Source: Gemmatales bacterium (GTDB taxonomy: Bacteria > Planctomycetota > Planctomycetia > Gemmatales > Gemmataceae). From it: a DNA stretch of 29,759 bases. The stretch lies in contig JBBQPD010000001.1 in assembly GCA_038331535.1 (NCBI GenBank), positions 1 to 29,759 of the forward strand, written 5' to 3'. Position numbers and translations under genes: made by a program. The notes beneath the pieces were generated by a model. The model worked only from the letters and a program-made list of their open reading frames with translations, ran no database searches and was not told the origin of the DNA. Shown here one piece after another: positions 4,496-21,508 of the stretch (position 1 is the first letter of the stretch; every line of letters begins with the position of its first letter).

Positions 4496-5491
4496 TCACC
4501 TGTCCTGCTTCTTCGGAGTTGAAACGGCCCATAATTTGATGGTTCGGTCCTTACCAGCGGAGGCTAAGAACTTCCCGTCTGGGCTGAATGCCACCGCCCA
4601 CACCTGATCGGAATGTCCGTTCAGGGTGACGATTGATTTACCATCATCTGCGAGGTTCCACAGGCGGATGGTTTTGTCCCAACTTCCTGACGCCAACCAT
4701 TTGCTATCAGGCGAAACCGTGACGCCGCCGACCCAGTCCGTGTGTCCTTCGAGTGTGTTCCGTTCCTTCCATATCGCAACTTCCCATACTTTCATTGTTC
4801 GATCCAAACTGCCAGAGACAAGCAGTTTGCCATTTGGACTGAACATCACGGAGTTGATTCCGTCGGCATGCCCTTCGAGCAGAGCAATTTGTTTGTAGGT
4901 GGAAGTGTTCCACACCCGGATCAGATCGTCGTCACTACCACAAGCCAGTTGTTTGCCGTCCGGGCTGAAGGCCACGCACACGACGCTGGTATGCCCGTCC
5001 AGTTCGGCTCGCTCTTTGCCAGTGACAACATCCCATAACTTCACGCTACCAGCCCAATTACCCGACGCAAGCGTTTTCCCGTCGGGTGAGAAGATAACGG
5101 AGCAGGCACCCACTTCATGCTTAAAGCAGCGGATTTGTTTTCCTGAACTGACATCCCAAAGCCTGACTGTCTTGTCTTCACTTGCAGACGCCACCATCTT
5201 TCCGTCCAAACTGAATGCCACGGAAGACACCGTCTTCTTGTGGCCTTTGAAGGTGGTCTTCTCTTTTGCAGCAGCCACGTTCCACACCTTCACGGTTCCA
5301 TCGTCGCTACCAGAAGCCAACAAGCCCCCATCTGGACTGAAAGCGACGGACCGAATAAGTCCCTCATGCCCCTCGAGGGTAGATTGCTCCTTGACTTCCA
5401 GAACTTGGGCATTTGCACCTTCACCCTGCGAAAAGCCAATCCACCCAAGCAGGAGAACCGCCCCAAGTACAAAGCTGTGCTGCACGACCAT
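4496..5491 (-). CDS. Secreted WD40-repeat (beta-propeller) protein
   Basis: About seven repeats of GH...V..VAFSPDG..LASGS.D.T.K.W; N-terminal signal-like hydrophobic stretch; ATG 5491 preceded by aaggaggag; codon usage visibly more A/T-rich than the flanking core genes. Confidence 0.92.
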   Translation of the reverse strand: MVVQHSFVLGAVLLLGWIGFSQGEGANAQVLEVKEQSTLEGHEGLIRSVAFSPDGGLLASGSDDGTVKVWNVAAAKEKTTFKGHKKTVSSVAFSLDGKMVASASEDKTVRLWDVSSGKQIRCFKHEVGACSVIFSPDGKTLASGNWAGSVKLWDVVTGKERAELDGHTSVVCVAFSPDGKQLACGSDDDLIRVWNTSTYKQIALLEGHADGINSVMFSPNGKLLVSGSLDRTMKVWEVAIWKERNTLEGHTDWVGGVTVSPDSKWLASGSWDKTIRLWNLADDGKSIVTLNGHSDQVWAVAFSPDGKFLASAGKDRTIKLWAVSTPKKQDR

Positions 5492-5683
5492 GAACTCCTC
5501 CTTGGTGGATAGCGGCCCCTTGGAACCTTTCTGCCCCGTCACGATACTGCCAAAAAAAGGGTAGTGGGGGATTGTGTCTCAAACCGACGCTTTTTTCAAG
5601 GCATTCTTCGTGGCGACGGCTATGACAAAAAAGGTTTACCATACCTGTCAGCAGGGGACTGGCCCGTTCCACGGACGCCTGGA

Positions 5684-7796: not shown

Positions 7797-10523
<2,727 letters not shown>

Positions 10524-10642
10524 GGACTCGTCATCCTGTGGGAAAACATCGGGTTATTCGAGTAGTTTACGGAGGAGCGCGGGGGGAGGCAAACGGGCCG
10601 AGAAGGCCGCCGTGCGCGGAGTAAGCGACGGAGGAGCGGGGC

Positions 10643-10670
10643 TTGACTTGTGGGGCCAAAAGGTTACGAT
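10643..10670 (+). promoter_or_regulatory. Sigma70-type promoter of the 10688-11546 module
   Basis: TTGACT (10643-10648) - 16 nt - TACGAT (10665-10670), followed by GGAGG and ATG 10688. Confidence 0.6.
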
Positions 10671-10687
10671 GCCGAGGGAGGTGGGTC

Positions 10688-11122
10688 ATGAGCGATGCGA
10701 CGGGAAATGGGCGGGATGCACTGGATTTCGCCAGTGCGCTCGGTGCCGAAGCTGCGTTTTGGACACAATGCCTTCGCATCTACATCCCGAACTAAGATCA
10801 GACCGGCAAGGAAACGGGCAATCAGCGGAAGTGGGTTTTGGAAGCAATGGAATTGCTGGCAACGATGAACGGCGGCGCGACGGCCATGCCGCAAGTCGAA
10901 GGCGGTTGGCTGAACGACAAAGGCGAACTGATCTGGGAAAATCCCGTCGTCGTGTACTCTTTTGTCGAGAACGACAAGTTTCTCAAAGACCTTCCACGAC
11001 TGTGAGAATTCATGCACCGCATGGGGCGTGAGACGAACCAAGGTGAAATCGCGTTTGAGTTCGCGGGACAGTTCTATCGCATTCGCACATTCGACGCACC
11101 AAATGGGGCTGACCATGAATAA
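10688..11122 (+). pseudogene. Hypothetical protein (possible PII/DUF3574-like fold) with two in-frame nonsense codons
   Basis: One 145-codon frame from ATG 10688 to TAA 11120-11122, protein-like throughout (QCLRIYIPN*DQTG...WVLEAMELLATMNGGATAMPQVEGGWLNDKGELIWENPVVVYSFV...PRL*EFMHRMGRETNQGEIAFEF). Internal TAA 10793-10795 and TGA 11003-11005. Not in the ORF track. Confidence 0.8.
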
Positions 11123-11546
11123 ACCTATCCGGGTGAAAGAATCGACGCAGAAGCCGATTCGGGTTGTCGGCTCGACCCAACCACGTCTCGATCCAGCCGA
11201 GGTGGCGCGGGCGCTCGGGGGCGAACCGACCGAGGTCACGAGAGGTTCTGCTCCGGCCCCGCTGAGTCTGTTCGCCATGCGTGGGGAGTTGTTCAACCGT
11301 CTGCACTCGAGCGGCGGCCGGCCCGCGCTGGAGGGAACGTCGCGTAGGCCGAAGATTCCTCTGAGCGAGCAGGATTGGCAACAGCTCGAAAACCTGGCGG
11401 CGTCCCTCGCCTCGGCCGACTGTGCGCCTTCCGCCGGTCAGGTGGCGAGCGTTCTGCTCAGTCGCGCGCTGCGCGAGTTGGCCGCGCAAGGGGCCGACGA
11501 AAAGCTGGCCGCGGCGCTGGCCCAGGAAGCGGCGAAGTCGGATTGA
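11115..11546 (+). CDS. Hypothetical protein (143 aa), antitoxin-like partner of the upstream pseudogene
   Basis: ATG 11115 overlaps the pseudogene end by 8 nt; segment RRPKIPLSEQDWQQLENLAASL...SAGQVASVLLSRAL resembles a ribbon-helix-helix. Confidence 0.7.
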   Translation: MNKPIRVKESTQKPIRVVGSTQPRLDPAEVARALGGEPTEVTRGSAPAPLSLFAMRGELFNRLHSSGGRPALEGTSRRPKIPLSEQDWQQLENLAASLASADCAPSAGQVASVLLSRALRELAAQGADEKLAAALAQEAAKSD

Positions 11547-11552
11547 TTTCCA

Positions 11553-11647
11553 AACCTCTCCCCCCACCCCCTCCCCTGCAAAGGGAGGGGCCAAACGCCT
11601 GTCTTTTCCCCCTTCCCTCGTAGGGAAGGGGGCCGGGGGGTTAGGTT
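11553..11647. repeat. REP-like double hairpin between convergent genes
   Basis: Imperfect hairpin cccctcccctgcaaagggagggg (about 11567-11590) and perfect cccccttccct-cgt-agggaaggggg (11608-11632), framed by aacct / aggtt. Confidence 0.75.
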
Positions 11648-11659
11648 GCGAAACGACGC

Positions 11660-12256
11660 CTACTCGGTAGCACGCGCGGATGACGCCGCCAGCGTCGTGA
11701 CAATTCGGCGGTCGGGAACCAGCCAGATCACCGCCACCACGGCGTAAAGACAGCAGGCCGCCACCGGCTCAAAGAATGCCACCGTGATGGCCAGGATGTA
11801 AATCAGCAGCGAGAGATTGCCTTTCAAGTCGCTGCCGAGCGCCGCCGCCAGCGCCGATTCCCGGCCGTGCAGAGCGACGAGGGCGCGGGTCAACAGCGAA
11901 TACGCGAAGCCGGACAGCAGCAGCACGACGCCGTAAGCCGCGACCGGCAGCTGCGCGAAGCGGGTCGCTCCCATCCAGGCCGTCACGAACGGCGTCAGCG
12001 ACAACCAAAACAGTAGGTGCAAATTGGCCCACAGCACCCAGCCGTTGACTCGGGTTGCCGCCTGCAACAGATGGTGATGGTTGTTCCAGTAGATGCCGAC
12101 AAAGACGAAGCTCAGGAGATAACTGAGCAACGCCGGCACCAGCGCTTGCAGCGCCTGCCACTCGGCGTTGAGGGGCGGCTTCAGTTCCAGCACCATGATG
12201 GTGAGGATGATCGCCAGCACGCCGTCGCTGAATGCCTCCAAGCGCCCCTTGCTCAT
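11660..12256 (-). CDS. TMEM175-family potassium channel (DUF1211)
   Basis: Signature RLEAFSDGVLAIILTIMVL, IYWNNHHHL, and about six hydrophobic helices; the conserved region begins at ATG 12256. Confidence 0.92.
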   Translation of the reverse strand: MSKGRLEAFSDGVLAIILTIMVLELKPPLNAEWQALQALVPALLSYLLSFVFVGIYWNNHHHLLQAATRVNGWVLWANLHLLFWLSLTPFVTAWMGATRFAQLPVAAYGVVLLLSGFAYSLLTRALVALHGRESALAAALGSDLKGNLSLLIYILAITVAFFEPVAACCLYAVVAVIWLVPDRRIVTTLAASSARATE

Positions 12257-12400
12257 TCCCTGTCCCCGGGGCGATTTCCACGGCGTCGTTAGAACGCAGT
12301 CTACGGACGCGGCGGGAAGAGGCCAACGGGGCCAGCGTAGTGGGAACAGAAGCGGGATTGGGGTACAATCACGGACATCCACGATCAGGGAGGCTCCGAG

Positions 12401-13048
12401 ATGAAGGTTCACGATTGGACTCGCGTCGAGGGCGGGGTCTTTCACGACTTTCACCTGTCGTGGGTCGTCCACCTGTGTACGTCGCTGAACCACCTTTTAC
12501 CGCCCGATCACTACGCCCGTATCGAACCGCACATGAAGAAAGCGTTGGTGGATTTGCTCGTCGATTTTCCTGACGTTCCATCGGACGCGAAAGGAAGTCG
12601 CCGCACGCTCACCATCCGGCACATTACCGGCCACCGCATTATCGCCCTGGTGGAGATTATTTCCCCCTCGAACAAGAGCGGAGAAAGGGGCGTCGCCGAG
12701 TTCGTGCAGAAGGCGGTCGCGGCCCTGCGGTCGCGGATTCACTTGGTCTTCGTCGATCTGTTTCCGCCGGGAAGGCACGACCCGCAAGGAATGCATGCCG
12801 CGATCTGGGAACACCTCGACGCCGAGGCTTACGAACTGCCCGCGGACCAACCGTTGACTCTCGCGTCCTACGCCGCCGGGACGGAAACGACCGCGTATGT
12901 CGAGCACCGCGCCGTCGGCGACCCGATGCCGGTTATGCCGCTGTTCCTCACCGGCGAGCGCTACGTGAACCTGCCGCTGGCATCGACCTATGAGGCGACG
13001 TTTTGCGGTCTGCCGGACTTCTGGATTGATGTGCTGGACAAAGCTTGA
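12401..13048 (+). CDS. DUF4058 family protein (restriction-endonuclease-like fold)
   Basis: HDWTRVEGGVFHDFHLSW N-terminus, VEIISPSNK motif, IHLVFVDL; RBS gggagg. Confidence 0.88.
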   Translation: MKVHDWTRVEGGVFHDFHLSWVVHLCTSLNHLLPPDHYARIEPHMKKALVDLLVDFPDVPSDAKGSRRTLTIRHITGHRIIALVEIISPSNKSGERGVAEFVQKAVAALRSRIHLVFVDLFPPGRHDPQGMHAAIWEHLDAEAYELPADQPLTLASYAAGTETTAYVEHRAVGDPMPVMPLFLTGERYVNLPLASTYEATFCGLPDFWIDVLDKA

Positions 13049-13197
13049 AAGACGAAAGGGAACCGTGAAGTAACGGCGCACCGTGATCTCGGCGGCCGGT
13101 TGACGGTCGCGCAGGGCGGATTCAAAGAGTGAGACAGAGGCAGGGAGGGGGTTACGGTGTCGTGAAACGGGCCGTGTCCTGCCGCCGCTCCGGGCCA

Positions 13198-13299
13198 TTA
13201 CGAATGCGGCTGTTTGCCGCGCACCCAGACGAAATACATCGTGCCGACGAGCATCGTTCCCAGAGAACCCACGACCACGCCCAACAGTACCGGATCCAT
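13198..13299 (-). CDS. 33-aa single-pass small membrane protein
   Basis: MDPVLLGVVVGSLGTMLVGTMYFVWVRGKQPHS*; RBS ggag 10 nt upstream; hydrophobic core followed by a basic tail; below the ORF-track size cutoff. Confidence 0.6.
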   Translation of the reverse strand: MDPVLLGVVVGSLGTMLVGTMYFVWVRGKQPHS

Positions 13300-13381
13300 G
13301 ACCAGATCTCCGCTTGTGCCAGATTAAGGGCGAACGAATTGCACAAGCATAGGTCAAAAACCGTGATCGGGCGTCTGTCGA

Positions 13382-13948
13382 TTACACGTCGAACACTTCG
13401 TTCACCGCCATGCGCCAGCCCGGCACCGCTGGTGCCGCTTCCGCCGTGTCGCCGCGGCGACAAATCGTCGGCTGATCGGGGGTATCGAGTTTGTACACGG
13501 CGACCGTTTCCGCGATCGGGTCCACGTTCCAGACGACGAGCGTGCCGGCCTCGAAGTAGTCGGCGCGCTTCGCCGCCATCTCGCGCTCTGCGGCGGGACC
13601 GTAGTCATTTTCGCTGCGCACCTCGACGGCGAACTGCGGCGCCCCTTCGATGAAGCGCATGAGATTGGCTGGCAGCGGTCCCTCGTAATACGAAGTGTCA
13701 GGAGAAAACGATTCGCGGCCCGAGGACAATTCGAGGACTGCATAGGCACTGCCGTCGGTCTTTGCCACGCCGCGTCCGGATTTCTTGGCGTGGCTCCGAA
13801 GGTTGACATAAATGTTCGCAGCAACTTCGGTCGGGAGGTGGCCACTTCCCATGATCTGCACGATCCTCCCGTTAATGAGTTCAGCCTTGCCCTCGATCCC
13901 ATTTAGGTCGTCCAGAGTAGCGCGGGGCGGTGCAGTCGGTGCGGACAT
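13382..13948 (-). CDS. Uma2 family endonuclease (DUF820)
   Basis: KAELINGRIV, SPDTSYY, PQFAVEVRSEND, KRADYFEAGTLVVWNVDP; RBS aaaggag before ATG 13948. Confidence 0.92.
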   Translation of the reverse strand: MSAPTAPPRATLDDLNGIEGKAELINGRIVQIMGSGHLPTEVAANIYVNLRSHAKKSGRGVAKTDGSAYAVLELSSGRESFSPDTSYYEGPLPANLMRFIEGAPQFAVEVRSENDYGPAAEREMAAKRADYFEAGTLVVWNVDPIAETVAVYKLDTPDQPTICRRGDTAEAAPAVPGWRMAVNEVFDV

Positions 13949-13979
13949 GGCAGCTCCTTTCGTCTCAGACCTTTTGGAA

Positions 13980-14627
13980 TCATGCTTCCAATTCCGCGAA
14001 CAAATCGCGCAGCGGCAACACAAATCCAGGCAATACCGGATCGCCGGTCAAGGTTTGATCCTGGCGCAGCACGACGGACTGATCGGGGGCCGTGAAGACT
14101 TCGACGGTCCGTGCCACGGGATCGACGTACCACACGAGAAGGACTCCCGCTCCGAAATAATCGTGCAGTTTGCGATCCATCTCCTGCGCCGTGTTACTCG
14201 GACTCAGCACCTCAACCGCCAGGTCCGGGCCGGATATCAGCATGGGGATTCGCGGAATGCGCCGGCTGGGAAAGTGCCGCCAGGAAATGAACAAAACATC
14301 GGGGATACGGACCAGACCGGGAGCCAGGCGCGCCATGCCGTCTGAGCCGAGGACAAAACCAAGCCGATGGATAATGACAAAATCACCGAGCGCCCGAACG
14401 ATAAAAGCCGCAAGGAAGTATTCTTGCAATCCCATGGCCTTTTCCACCAGCACGCCGTCTACCAACTCGAACAAACGCTTGTCCCGATCGTGAATGTCGA
14501 TCACGTCTTGCTCGGTGGCCGTACCGGGAGGTGGATCCTGGCGAATACGCCGGTGTGCAATCGGCCCGAAGTGGGCCAGCAGATCGGCAACGGTCCACTC
14601 GGTCGGCATGGTCGCGGTGGTGGTCAT
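13980..14627 (-). CDS. Uma2 family endonuclease (DUF820)
   Basis: LFELVDGVLVEKAMG, RIPDVLFIS, PDLAVEVLSPSNT, KLHDYFGAGVLLVWYVDP; RBS gggag before ATG 14627. Confidence 0.92.
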   Translation of the reverse strand: MTTTATMPTEWTVADLLAHFGPIAHRRIRQDPPPGTATEQDVIDIHDRDKRLFELVDGVLVEKAMGLQEYFLAAFIVRALGDFVIIHRLGFVLGSDGMARLAPGLVRIPDVLFISWRHFPSRRIPRIPMLISGPDLAVEVLSPSNTAQEMDRKLHDYFGAGVLLVWYVDPVARTVEVFTAPDQSVVLRQDQTLTGDPVLPGFVLPLRDLFAELEA

Positions 14628-14660
14628 GTAATCAACTCCCCATGATCCTGCGCCTATCTG

Positions 14661-14703
14661 CCGCTTGCGGCTTAGCGGTCCGCTGCCGCTAAGCCGCAAG
14701 CGG
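14661..14703. repeat. Palindrome family A, copy 1 (REP-like)
   Basis: ccgcttgcggcttagcgg - tccgctg - ccgctaagccgcaagcgg; perfect 18-bp stem. Confidence 0.95.
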
Positions 14704-14737
14704 AAAACAATTACCATTCTACCCGACGTTTCCTCGT

Positions 14738-16030
14738 TCACGCCACCTCGGCCAGCGCCTCCTGCGCCGCGCCGATCGTCTGTTCGACCTCCTTGTCGCC
14801 GTGGCGGATCGACAGGAACGCCGCCTCGAACTGGCTGCACGGCAGGTAGACGCCGCGGTCCATCATCGCCCAGAAAAAGCGGCCGAACTTCGCCGCGTCG
14901 CTCTGCTTCGCCGTGTCGTAATCCGCCACCGCGCTTCCCGTAAAGAACAGCGTCCACATGCTGCCGAGGCGGTTCAGCCGGTGCGGCACTCCCGCCGCTG
15001 TCGCCGCCTTTGTCAAACCGTCCGCCAATTTCGCCGTCTGCTGCTCCAGCTTCGCGTAAGGCGGATGGTCGCGCAGCTCCTGCAAGGTGGCGATGCCGGC
15101 GGCCATGGCGACGGGGTTGCCCGACAGCGTGCCGGCCTGGAACACCGGCCCGGCCGGCATGACCTGCGACATCACGTCGAGCCGCCCGCCGTAAGCGCCG
15201 ACCGGAAAGCCGCCGCCGACGATCTTGCCCAGCACCGTCAGGTCCGGCATCTGTTTGTAAAGCTGCTGCGCTCCGCCGTAGGACAGCCGAAAGCCGGTCA
15301 TCACCTCGTCGTAGATCAGCAGCGCCCCGTGCTTCTCGGTCAGCTGGCGCAGAGCGGACAGGAACCCGTCGGTCGGCGTGACCAGGCCCATGTTGCCCGG
15401 CACCGGCTCAACGATGACGCCGGCGATGCGCGCGCCGTGGGCCGCGAAGGCGTCGGCCAGTCCCTGGGCGTCGTTGTAGCGCAGCGACAGCGTGTCGGCG
15501 GTGCAGCCCTTCGGCACGCCGGGGCTGTTGGGGACGCCGAGCGTGGTGGCGCTGGAACCGGCCTGGACGAGCAGGCTATCGACGTGGCCGTGATAGCAGC
15601 CGGCGAACTTGACAATGACGTCGCGGCCGGTGAAGCCGCGCGCCAGGCGAATGGCGCTCATCGACGCCTCGGTGCCGCTCGACACCATGCGCACCATCTC
15701 GATGGACGGCACGGCGGCAATGACGAGGTCGGCCATCTGCGTCTCGGCCTCGGTGGGCGCGCCGAACGACGCCCCGCGCCGCACCGCCTCCTCGACGGCG
15801 GCGACGACGCGCGGATGGGCGTGGCCGAGGATCAGCGGCCCCCACGAGCCGATGTAGTCGAGGTACTGGTAGCCGTCGATGTCGAAGAGGTACGCCCCCT
15901 CGCCGCGCGCGATGAAGAGCGGTTCGCCGCCGACGCCGCCGAACGCCCGCGCCGGGCTATTGACGCCCCCGGGGATGACGCGCCGGGCGCGCTGGAAGGC
16001 CTCACGACTGCGGACGCGGTTGGGTTTCAT
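14738..16030 (-). CDS. hemL: Glutamate-1-semialdehyde 2,1-aminomutase
   Basis: 430 aa; IPGGVNSPARAF, YIGSWGPLILGH, SGTEASMSAIRLARG, YHGHVD, DEVMTGFR, LGKIVGGG, AGTLSGNP. Confidence 0.97.
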   Translation of the reverse strand: MKPNRVRSREAFQRARRVIPGGVNSPARAFGGVGGEPLFIARGEGAYLFDIDGYQYLDYIGSWGPLILGHAHPRVVAAVEEAVRRGASFGAPTEAETQMADLVIAAVPSIEMVRMVSSGTEASMSAIRLARGFTGRDVIVKFAGCYHGHVDSLLVQAGSSATTLGVPNSPGVPKGCTADTLSLRYNDAQGLADAFAAHGARIAGVIVEPVPGNMGLVTPTDGFLSALRQLTEKHGALLIYDEVMTGFRLSYGGAQQLYKQMPDLTVLGKIVGGGFPVGAYGGRLDVMSQVMPAGPVFQAGTLSGNPVAMAAGIATLQELRDHPPYAKLEQQTAKLADGLTKAATAAGVPHRLNRLGSMWTLFFTGSAVADYDTAKQSDAAKFGRFFWAMMDRGVYLPCSQFEAAFLSIRHGDKEVEQTIGAAQEALAEVA

Positions 16031-16054
16031 AGCGAATGATCCTGGGTACTGAAA

Positions 16055-16399
16055 TTAAGGCGCCAGCCCTAACCTGATCCGCGCCTCCTGTCGCACGAAC
16101 TCGGTATGACGTAAAGCTGATTTCAGCCGCCGCCCGGTAGTGCGCACGCCAGGATAGCGATACTCCACGGCGTACCGCGTGAGGGACTTCAAACCGCGCC
16201 GAAGGGTTCGGAGTGTGGCGTCATGTGGCAGGAGCAAGTTGAGAAGACCCTTGAGATCATGTGTCTTTGGAACGGGGTCGCCGCTTTCTTGCAGGAGGGC
16301 TTTGAGAGATTTTCCCGCTGCCTGTTGGCAATGGGAGCACGCCAGATCGAGCAGAGGGGGCCTGAGTGCGGCCAGCGCTATCGCTCCCTTCCAGTCGTC
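16055..16399 (-). pseudogene. HEPN-domain protein (MNT-HEPN TA type), 5'-truncated and eroded
   Basis: SHCQQAAGKSLKA (typical consensus FHxQQAAEKxLKA), PKTHDL, LTRYAVEYRYPG. No plausible start codon; the frame runs into an AT-rich segment and then a 35-bp inverted repeat. Confidence 0.8.
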
Positions 16400-16424
16400 A
16401 TTGTATATCAGCCCGTCTTCACCA

Positions 16425-16504
16425 GGGTGGACGGGGTTGAGGTACTCCGAAACCCCGGCTATTACGACGGCCGGGGCTTCGGGATACTTCAGCCCCGGCC
16501 ACCC
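16425..16504. repeat. 35-bp imperfect inverted repeat, family B (REP/MITE-like)
   Basis: Left arm 16425-16459 vs reverse complement of 16470-16504: 29/35 identical; 10-nt spacer. Confidence 0.85.
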
Positions 16505-16605
16505 ACCGCACGAGAAGAAGAATGAGGACAAAAGAGGAGGGAAATAGTGGGCATGTTCATCTATCGCAGGCGACAACTGAAACTGACCCCTTTTACACTT
16601 TCATG

Positions 16606-17679
16606 TTAGAGATTCAACTGCTGTCGAAGATGATCGAAAACCAATCTCCGCTGCTCCAAGCTCTCAGCCGTCGTTTCCACCCTGAGCCCAAGCGGCGGCC
16701 CTTCACCTGTAATCACAACTTGGAGATCGGCTTCATTCTCCTTGGCCAAGCGAATTCCTTTCTGGCTACCGGCCGATTTGTCATAATAAACGAGCCGAAC
16801 GAACGCACTCCGGGCAAGTCGGTTCACAACCTGTTCCCAACCGTGGGGCCGGTGGTGGCTCTCCTGTAGTTTGATCTTCTTCTCCGGAGAAGTGTCGCAA
16901 GAAGGTGGCCAATCGACTCCGGGGGCCTCCAATAATTGTGCCGCAATCTCTCCCAAGAGATTTCCACAAACGATTTCTTTGCCGCCCTCTTCAGCCGATT
17001 CTAGTAGCATTTCCAATCGACCGTCGGCTTTCAGCAAGCCTGCAACTTCGGATCGCGGAAGGCATTCTCCGCCAGCAATCTTGCGCAACAGAGCTTTTCC
17101 AGACCCTTCGCGGAGCCAGTCCGGTGCAAGGCTAATCGGCAGTGGTTCGAGTTTGATGAGTTGTTTGAATTGCTCGTAGATATAATATACCGGCGCCCCT
17201 AACAGTGCCCCAATCAAGTTGGCAATAGCAATCTCTGCCTTGAAGCCACCAGTCGCAGCTATGGCTACCTCACCGCTCGTATGCCCAGATCGAATTTCTT
17301 CTGCCAGGACTCGTACCAGTTGGCCAAGACCACGGTTAAACGTGTCAGCGTCAGTATAATTGAGTTCATGCACCTGCCGAGATTCGGCTTGCAATTTGTT
17401 CTGCCGCGCGTACTCCTTCAACCGCTCCGCACAGTACTGCCCGTCAGGGGTGTGGGAATGTACAAGCAGAACCTTTTCTCCATTTGGTTCGGTGAGAATA
17501 CCAAGCTTCGCCCAAGTATGAATCTCTGCGCTGGCCCGCTCTGGAGGTGCTGTGGTGAGCCAGGGAAGGACGCCGGTCGGTTCGGGAAACTTCTCCCCGA
17601 AACGCCATCCTGCCCACGGTCGATCATCTCGACTATTTGTCAACAGCGATGTTCCGACTGTCGTAATTATCGTCCGCAT
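16606..17679 (-). CDS. Stand-alone CARF-domain protein, APE2256/Sso1393-like family, with unassigned C-terminal domain
   Basis: 357 aa from ATG 17679 (RBS gggag); IITTVGTSLL, SAEI, HSHTPDGQYCAERL, ATGGFKAE and VYYIYEQF are APE2256-type CARF motifs; A/T-richer codon usage than neighbours. Confidence 0.88.
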   Translation of the reverse strand: MRTIITTVGTSLLTNSRDDRPWAGWRFGEKFPEPTGVLPWLTTAPPERASAEIHTWAKLGILTEPNGEKVLLVHSHTPDGQYCAERLKEYARQNKLQAESRQVHELNYTDADTFNRGLGQLVRVLAEEIRSGHTSGEVAIAATGGFKAEIAIANLIGALLGAPVYYIYEQFKQLIKLEPLPISLAPDWLREGSGKALLRKIAGGECLPRSEVAGLLKADGRLEMLLESAEEGGKEIVCGNLLGEIAAQLLEAPGVDWPPSCDTSPEKKIKLQESHHRPHGWEQVVNRLARSAFVRLVYYDKSAGSQKGIRLAKENEADLQVVITGEGPPLGLRVETTAESLEQRRLVFDHLRQQLNL

Positions 17680-17790
17680 AATCTTCTCCCGGGACGCAGA
17701 CAGTTGCGCTGCAGCGCAGGCGAAGTTTTTCGTGGCCGAACAACCGATTCTCCACACCGGCGCCGGTAGCGTTATGACCCTCTTCGACTC

Positions 17791-17820
17791 AGTACAACAC
17801 GACAGCATTCCTCCTGTCAA
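17791..17820 (-). promoter_or_regulatory. Candidate sigma70 promoter for the CARF gene
   Basis: Perfect TTGACA (plus strand 17815-17820), 18-nt spacer, weak TGTACT -10 with an upstream TG. Confidence 0.35.
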
Positions 17821-17925
17821 GCGCCCGTTTCCGATCACTCCGCGATTTTCGTGCTCGGGCCGCCTCCCGCTGGGACACGACTCGCCCCGCGCTCCCCTAT
17901 CGGGTCGCGGCAAAACGATGAATCC

Positions 17926-20920: not shown

Positions 20921-21508
20921 ATGAAGTCCGCTGCTCGTCAAAGAACCTGGCTCGCCGCGGCCCTGGCGCTGCCCGTCGTTCTGCTTGCGCTGGATGCCGT
21001 CTACGGCCAGAACCAAAGGCCGCCGGTCTTTCAGCCGCAGCCGCCGCCGCCGGTCTTTCAGCCGCAGCCGCCGGTCTTTCAGCCACAGCAACCGGTCTTT
21101 CAGCCACAGCAACCGATCTTTCAGCCGCAGCAACCGATGCCGCCTATTCAGCAGCCGCCGGTCTTCAACCCGCCCCAGGGGCCGATGTTCGTTACCGTGT
21201 GGTCGTGCAATCGTTGCGGAAGGGAACTGGGCCGGGGCGATATCAAGCCTGTCATCGACTCCTGTCCCGGCTGTGGTGCCCGACTGAACGGGTTCGGCTT
21301 CTCTCAGGGTACCTCAAACCCCGGCAAGACGCCGGTGAATCCCGAATCCATGCGGACCGGTGCGATTGTCCTCGGCGGCGTCGTGCTCGGCGTCGGGGTC
21401 ATGGTTGGCGCCGGATTTCTGATTGCCCATTTGCGCAAGCCCGCCCGAAAGCGCGCGCGCCGGCGCCGCCGCGATGAAGACGAAGACGACTTCGATTCTC
21501 GGGATTGA
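20921..21508 (+). CDS. Membrane protein with PVFQPQ repeats, CxxC...CxxC motif, TM helix and Arg/Asp tail
   Basis: N-terminal hydrophobic segment, repeat region, CNRC...CPGC, TM GAIVLGGVVLGVGVMVGAGFLIA, tail RRRRRDEDEDD. Confidence 0.8.
   Translation: MKSAARQRTWLAAALALPVVLLALDAVYGQNQRPPVFQPQPPPPVFQPQPPVFQPQQPVFQPQQPIFQPQQPMPPIQQPPVFNPPQGPMFVTVWSCNRCGRELGRGDIKPVIDSCPGCGARLNGFGFSQGTSNPGKTPVNPESMRTGAIVLGGVVLGVGVMVGAGFLIAHLRKPARKRARRRRRDEDEDDFDSRD
21023..21130 (+). repeat. Coding tandem repeat, five copies of ccggtctttcagccgcag
   Basis: Copies start at 21023, 21050, 21071, 21092 and 21113; the last four have a 21-bp period. Confidence 0.9.

Follow-up and report, generated by a model that had tools for sequence, protein, structure and literature searches.

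The window analyzed here is the 29.8-kb contig JBBQPD010000001.1 (29,759 nucleotides) of a Gemmatales bacterium, part of a metagenome-assembled genome (MAG) from sediment (GCA_038331535.1; 6.9 Mb, 1216 contigs, 84% complete, 3.4% contamination). On its minus strand it carries a complete gene (16606..17679, stop codon at 16606-16608) for a protein of 357 amino acids that has more than 350 full-length homologues, and this gene is our subject. Its translation is free of stops. Three parts can be told apart in the protein: a CARF7 (Cas_APE2256) sensor at the N-terminus (residues 1-180, 17140..17679), a helical or winged-helix-like domain in the middle (residues 186-251, 16927..17124) and an output domain resembling DUF2103 at the C-terminus (residues 257-357, 16609..16911). 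The reading frame, the domain layout and two motifs, TVGTS with Ser11 and ATGGFK with Lys147, had been described in an initial annotation of the window, and all were confirmed by translation, by comparison with 28 homologues and by AlphaFold2 (AF2) modeling.

The longest open reading frame (ORF) at this site (16606-17913, minus strand) begins at an upstream TTG codon and would yield 435 amino acids (protein P0003). The N-termini of the homologues coincide with the MRT..TVGTS start of the 357-residue form (MRTIITTVGTS), and we therefore regard the longer form as probably over-extended and the ATG at 17679 as the true start. The intergenic region upstream of the gene (17680..17925, minus strand, 246 nt), which was read directly, contains a promoter-like site, TTGACA-18-TGTACT, with its -35 hexamer at 17816-17821, which is a weak candidate for a promoter of the gene's own; a GGGAGA Shine-Dalgarno sequence precedes the ATG by about 7 nt. 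The composition of the gene is as atypical as initially claimed and fits a recent acquisition: its GC content is 53.7% versus 64% for the assembly, the GC content at third codon positions (GC3) is 53%, with values of about 0.8-0.9 in neighboring genes, and only 0.24% of genome windows of equal size are as poor in GC.

A CARF7 sensor joined to a DUF2103-like domain

Sequence profiles and the predicted structure identify the N-terminal half of the protein as a CARF7/Crf7 sensor, in agreement with the APE2256-type CARF domain proposed in the initial annotation. The matches to PF09651 (Cas_APE2256; 101.5 bits, cut-off 24.8) and TIGR02619 (87.1 bits, cut-off 37.45, E 1e-24) lie above their cut-offs. 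Across the 28 homologues (34-66% identity), Ser11 in TVGTS, Ala51, Glu52 and Lys147 in ATGGFK are invariant (codons of Ser11, Glu52 and Lys147 at 17647-17649, 17524-17526 and 17239-17241, minus strand). Ser11, Glu52 and Lys147 are the counterparts of Ser12, Glu70 and Lys167 of SyCsm6, a member of CARF7 with demonstrated cleavage of cyclic oligoadenylate (cOA), and the roles that we assign to the serine of G-T-S, the glutamate of S-A-E and the lysine of G-G-F-K are taken from that work (PMC9676260). SyCsm6 and Cami1, CARF7 proteins that have been studied by experiment, bind cOA and cleave it slowly (PMC9676260; PMC12409355).

An AF2 model of the whole protein, calculated with the family alignment as input, reached a mean predicted local distance difference test score (pLDDT) of 88.4 and resolves a Rossmann-like CARF domain (about residues 1-180), the helical or winged-helix-like region (186-251) and a C-terminal domain (about 265-355). 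By sequence, the solved structures closest to the protein are those of Cami1 (8PHB/8PHJ; E 2.7e-18 over residues 49-258) and of two ring nucleases, Sis0811 and Sso1393, and the same proteins are found when the model is used in Foldseek (Cami1, E 1e-13; Sso1393 and Sis0811, E 1e-12 to 1e-10). The middle domain was delimited from the AF2 secondary structure and from the phmmer alignment to Cami1, which reaches residue 258.

As a whole, the protein matches the PADLOC profile PDLC01931 ('CARF7--CARF_DUF2103') end to end (residues 1-355, profile positions 1-339/340, E 2e-93, 311 bits). The C-terminal domain can accordingly no longer be called unassigned, as it was in the initial annotation: the CARF7_DUF2103 architecture is described as 'previously catalogued' in the Domainator paper (PMC11754643), it is also present in the supplement of PMC12669027, and the domain is termed 'DUF2103-like' in PMC12065111. 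According to papers quoting it, the CARF classification of Makarova et al. (2020) includes this architecture as well; PADLOC covers it with PDLC01930-01932, and the 2025 CRISPR-Cas classification uses the name Crf7.

For the C-terminal domain alone AF2 predicts, with a pLDDT of 93.4, a compact alpha-beta4-alpha topology in which four strands come between a first helix and a long second one. Conservation was evaluated over 125 near-complete copies, taken as representative clusters from all architectures. Lys268 (93%), His275 (90%), Pro278 (91%), Thr336 (98%) and Thr337 (94%) stand out, followed by Ala338 (87%), His276 (74%), Gln343 (73%) and Arg277 (62%); the codons of His275 and Thr336 lie at 16855-16857 and 16672-16674 (minus strand). 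No acidic residue is conserved to at least 60% at any position of the domain in these 125 clusters. The His-His-x-x-His patch pointed out in the initial annotation is thus real, but conserved only in part, namely well at His275 and less so at His276, while His279 is variable among the 28 aligned homologues. A homodimer prediction for the domain gave a score of 0.01 and has no bearing either way.

Several comparisons tie the domain to DUF2103 (PF09876, 'predicted metal-binding protein'). The best structural match in the ESM Atlas is a cluster that consists to 100% of PF09876 proteins (template modeling (TM) score 0.76 over 104 residues, root-mean-square deviation 2.9), and among the AFDB clusters a 'Predicted metal-binding protein' is matched with an E value of 2.4e-4. 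A bridging protein, P0247, has a C-terminus that passes the PF09876 cut-off (26.6 bits, cut-off 22.4) and at the same time matches the profile of our family with a probability of 97.4% (E 1e-11, 94 columns). An aligned motif, K...H-x-R/P...G, is common to both. The predicted fold and the motif are shared with Pfam DUF2103, but the PF09876 model gives no direct match to the C-terminal part of the protein at E <= 1, nor to any of the 28 family members at E <= 0.1; significance was reached neither in a direct hhalign comparison with a single DUF2103 protein (E 0.0034, probability 9%) nor in a profile-profile comparison with an alignment of 18 sequences from a planctomycete DUF2103 clade (E 0.0097, probability 4%). 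It is because of the lack of significance in direct comparison with Pfam DUF2103 that we use the label 'DUF2103-like', which is accurate for a domain connected to DUF2103 by its predicted fold and by a bridging sequence. Plant (Streptophyta) proteins of about 750 amino acids that have S1 RNA-binding domains and are annotated as 'nucleic acid-binding OB-fold-like' contain a region that weakly resembles the DUF2103-like domain (TM score 0.53, 77 residues).

The domain is rare. Only 151 clusters were retrieved when 1.84 billion representatives were searched with its profile; 69 of them are fusions with CARF7, 26 the domain alone or fragments, and 56 proteins with other N-termini, including the Cas_NE0113 (Csx13-type) CARF domain, a coiled coil, a membrane-anchored coiled coil and a YaaA/DUF6884 fusion. 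In addition, the domain occupies the effector slot of Menshen NsnC (PMC12065111). That it recurs without CARF and fills the effector slot elsewhere, together with the conservation of its polar residues, suggests that the DUF2103-like domain is a modular output domain with an activity of its own. Among individual carriers, P0190, P0205, P0231 and P0252 bear the domain on the Cas_NE0113/Csx13 CARF clade, and the P0250 cluster has it fused to YaaA/DUF6884. The metagenomic proteins P0131, P0132, P0141 and P0148 (580-670 amino acids) have it at the C-terminus and contain neither a Pfam domain nor CARF; by eye, P0131 and P0132 appear to span the membrane twice and to combine a region of periplasmic appearance with a long coiled coil rich in alanine and glutamate. 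The neighborhoods of the non-CARF carriers P0233 and P0132 were uninformative.

Type III linkage of the family and resident type III loci

Six of the seven homologue neighborhoods that were sampled adjoin type III cas (Cas10/RAMP) genes. These comprise III-D-like loci with Csx19 (P0042 and the closest homologue, P0004, which is 66% identical), III-B Cmr loci (P0022, P0009 and P0074) and a III-A locus in Thermovirga lienii. The seventh, P0100, is an orphan that adjoins lon. A family member in a further locus, L022, adjoins a RAMP-like gene. The initial annotation had portrayed the gene as an orphan outside CRISPR, and this holds for the present copy on its contig but not for the family, which is normally embedded in type III loci. 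We therefore regard the gene as a displaced copy and not as representative of a CARF lineage outside CRISPR.

The same assembly contains type III genes on other contigs. Contig C25 carries a III-A/D-like locus (9368-16582) in which a Csm-type Cas10 with a GGDD motif and without an HD domain is followed by Csm2, Csm3 and Csm4, and the contig ends just upstream of cas10. The locus continues with a CARF7-DUF2103 paralogue of our protein (P0124) and a reverse transcriptase-like gene (408 amino acids) with a weak match to DRT UG29. The paralogue belongs to the PDLC01930 sub-family (E 3e-123), whereas the copy studied here belongs to PDLC01931, and their CARF parts share 33% identity. On contig C637, a Cmr2 with GGDD is followed by Cmr3 and Cmr4. 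A partial gene of the CARF7-RelE class (PDLC01934, E 2e-65) is cut by the end of contig C744 (3363-3851), so that the assembly carries three different CARF7 genes. The suggestion that a distant type III system could be the partner in trans is thus plausible, as the genome search found the two Cas10 genes, both with GGDD. The other suggestion made at the outset, a different cyclic-nucleotide pathway, has found no support, because no cGAS/DncV-like nucleotidyltransferase (CD-NTase) of the SMODS type was found in the 84%-complete assembly.

Surroundings of the gene

Neither cas genes nor a CRISPR array were found on the 29.8-kb contig, a negative that the contig ends limit to the 13-16 kb flanking the gene on each side, as had been noted before. 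The gene stands alone in housekeeping surroundings, between hemL and a functionally unannotated gene; further neighbors on the contig are genes for pyruvate phosphate dikinase, a ROK kinase, DUF1501, WD40 and PIN proteins and two Uma2 genes. An integrase, transposase or phage gene was not found on the contig. An orthologue was not found in a genome of the same genus, and the family is patchily distributed among 40 relatives. The same-genus genome keeps hemL (88-90% identical) next to different neighbors, and because the synteny around hemL is not kept, an empty insertion site cannot be defined. Together with the atypical composition, the missing orthologue and the patchy distribution point to horizontal acquisition, or to displacement out of a type III locus, as the probable origin of the copy. 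Among the datasets listed as carrying the gene there is no RNA dataset, and only one DNA dataset matches strongly, a metagenome from sediment that is possibly the source sample itself.

Directly downstream lies an ORF with a HEPN domain (16055..16576, minus strand). PF05168 matches only its residues 75-164, beginning at profile position 23, while the paralogue on contig C795 contains nothing that corresponds to residues 1-73, and a GC-rich palindrome of 10 bp lies within the ORF at about 16466-16497. Judging from this alignment, the ORF is probably a 5'-truncated remnant of a toxin-antitoxin system. A HEPN neighbor occurs in none of the seven homologue neighborhoods and is hence not a conserved partner of the family. 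An MNT partner gene is absent beside the HEPN ORF.

Other features of the window were recorded in passing. Two Uma2 genes in tandem (DUF820, 'putative restriction endonuclease'; 13382-14957, minus strand) have a lowered GC3 of 0.62-0.72 and weakly match PDC-S03, a candidate system of PADLOC. A gene for a seven-blade WD40 protein (4496-5542, minus strand) has a GC content of 54%, which is low for the contig, and gives a partial match to PADLOC HEAT-ARM_XIII. Within an ORF without family match (20921-21508), a tandem 21-nt repeat (21011-21190, plus strand; six overlapping 42-nt copies) appears to encode a proline/glutamine-rich repeat.

Proposed function and alternative explanations

Taken together, we consider it somewhat probable (about 0.6) that the protein is an ancillary effector, horizontally acquired or displaced, which senses cyclic tetra-adenylate (cA4) and has the resident type III systems as its partners in trans. 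On recognizing foreign RNA, a resident Cas10, either the Csm-type protein encoded on C25 or the Cmr protein encoded on C637, both with GGDD, would produce cOA. cA4 would then bind in trans to the dimeric-type CARF7 domain of the protein, and ligand binding would release the activity of the DUF2103-like domain, which sits where RelE sits in Cami1. The CARF domain would probably cleave cA4 slowly by means of Ser11, Glu52 and Lys147, such that the protein switches itself off. In this scheme, cA4 as the ligand, the ring-nuclease activity, the activation in trans and the output chemistry are inferred.

With respect to the output, RNase A, RNase T1, MazF and the 2H enzymes serve as the model for phosphoryl transfer that does not depend on metals. 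The constellation of basic residues, histidine and threonine without acidic residues in the DUF2103-like domain fits this type of chemistry by analogy, and Lys268, His275 (with His276 and Arg277) and Thr336/Thr337 could form the active site of a metal-independent RNase or phosphodiesterase. That the output consists in metal-independent cleavage of RNA or of another phosphodiester is nevertheless a tentative proposal, to which we give somewhat less than even odds. We are equally cautious about the broader idea that the DUF2103-like domain may be a new enzymatic fold, a metal-independent RNase or phosphodiesterase switched by CARF7 or NE0113, and that stand-alone copies such as the present one may be portable 'plug-in' effectors tapping the type III cOA of a new host.

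Several points weigh against an effector acting in trans. A characterized CARF7-DUF2103 member or biochemical data on one were not found in the literature searched. No solved structure of known function is related to the C-terminal domain: at E <= 10 its sequence profile retrieves nothing from the PDB sequences, which include Cami1, and in structural comparison of the modeled domain the best Foldseek E value against solved structures is 0.12 and the best Z score against the PDB is 4.5. The idea of an RNase is drawn entirely, and by analogy, from the position of the domain, the chemistry of its residues and its fusion partners. In this fragmented MAG, the gene and the Cas10 loci are on separate contigs, and that they share a cell is presumed. 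Finally, of the promoter proposed in the initial annotation the TTGACA-18-TGTACT site and the Shine-Dalgarno sequence are present, but a consensus promoter scan did not call the site, and the promoter is thus unconfirmed.

The protein could also be mainly an off-switch in the manner of the Crn1 ring nucleases, with a CARF domain that degrades cA4 and with winged-helix and DUF2103-like domains that play a structural or regulatory part and have no toxic output. Like the Crn1-type enzymes (Sso1393, Sis0811 and Sso2081) it has the CARF fold and keeps the catalytic serine and lysine; its CARF domain is closest to those of Sis0811 and Sso1393. SyCsm6, a CARF7-RelE protein, displayed only ring-nuclease activity in vitro (PMC9676260), and many Crf7 members probably have such activity (PMC12669027 supplement). 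Unlike Crn1, however, which stops after CARF with or without the winged helix (about 180-320 amino acids), our protein adds a conserved domain of 100 residues whose own polar residues are strongly conserved and which recurs in proteins without CARF and as the effector part of other systems (PMC12065111). The NCBIfam equivalog NF040951 ('CRISPR system ring nuclease') gives a partial match (E 1.5e-10) that, with 40.5 bits, remains far below the cut-off of 600. We therefore consider a pure off-switch unlikely. A transcriptional regulator resembling Csa3 that responds to cOA via the winged-helix-like domain is very improbable in our view: the position of this domain behind CARF, a weak Csa3 match (E 0.07) and Foldseek alignments to Csa3 (E 1e-6 to 1e-4) would be in line with it, but the same winged helix is found in Cami1 and in Crn1-type ring nucleases, and the conserved C-terminal domain would be left unexplained.

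Least credible of all, to our judgment, is that the protein is simply Cami1, i.e., an mRNA interferase of the CARF-RelE type that depends on the ribosome and whose RelE domain has diverged. The two proteins do share the CARF7-winged helix scaffold and the serine, glutamate and lysine of the cA4 site, the PADLOC 'CARF_RelE' profile PDLC01033 aligns with residues 1-351 (E 3e-53), and Foldseek aligns the full model over 386-399 columns. Yet the sequence alignment to Cami1 ends at residue 258, RelE/ParE-type Pfam families match none of the 28 members at E <= 0.1, and an hhalign comparison with the C-terminus of P0335, a protein of the CARF7-RelE class from a related genome that was obtained with PDLC01934 and served as a control, gave an E value of 0.65. 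PDLC01937 yielded no full CARF7-RelE protein covering the RelE part in 200 genomes of the phylum. Judged by its sequence, the output domain is thus not the canonical RelE that the initial annotation had allowed for; the positive evidence ties the domain to DUF2103. The gene might, on the other hand, be a stray copy derived from a mobile element, either an anti-CRISPR-like sink for cA4 directed against the type III signaling of the host or functionless and decaying. Its strongly atypical GC content, its orphan position and the adjacent truncated HEPN remnant agree with such an origin, and ring nucleases are known from mobile elements (PMC12409355; PMC12751052). However, the ORF is intact, all residues conserved in the family are present, the contig has no integrase, transposase or phage gene, and the closest homologue is chromosomal and adjoins Cas10, all of which renders this explanation improbable.

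The gene therefore does not stand for a new kind of system. It is a further member of a known, catalogued and uncharacterized CRISPR-linked class, which it resembles in its end-to-end PDLC01931 match, in the combination of CARF7, winged helix and DUF2103-like C-terminus and in the link of its family to type III loci, and from whose norm it departs by its location outside any CRISPR-Cas locus and its foreign-looking GC content. What remains of interest is the chemistry and the fold of the DUF2103-like domain and the value of the orphan copy for studying trans-activation. In surveys of type III loci, CARF7-DUF2103 is not listed as a separate effector class and may be counted with Cami1. Finding an activity of the DUF2103-like domain would add a new effector chemistry to cOA signaling, a prospect that arises because the domain is rare (151 clusters), has no solved relative and recurs in other defense contexts. 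With two cyclase-competent Cas10 genes retained in its genome, the present copy clearly exemplifies such an effector away from its CRISPR locus and, as an orphan, could serve for testing trans-activation.

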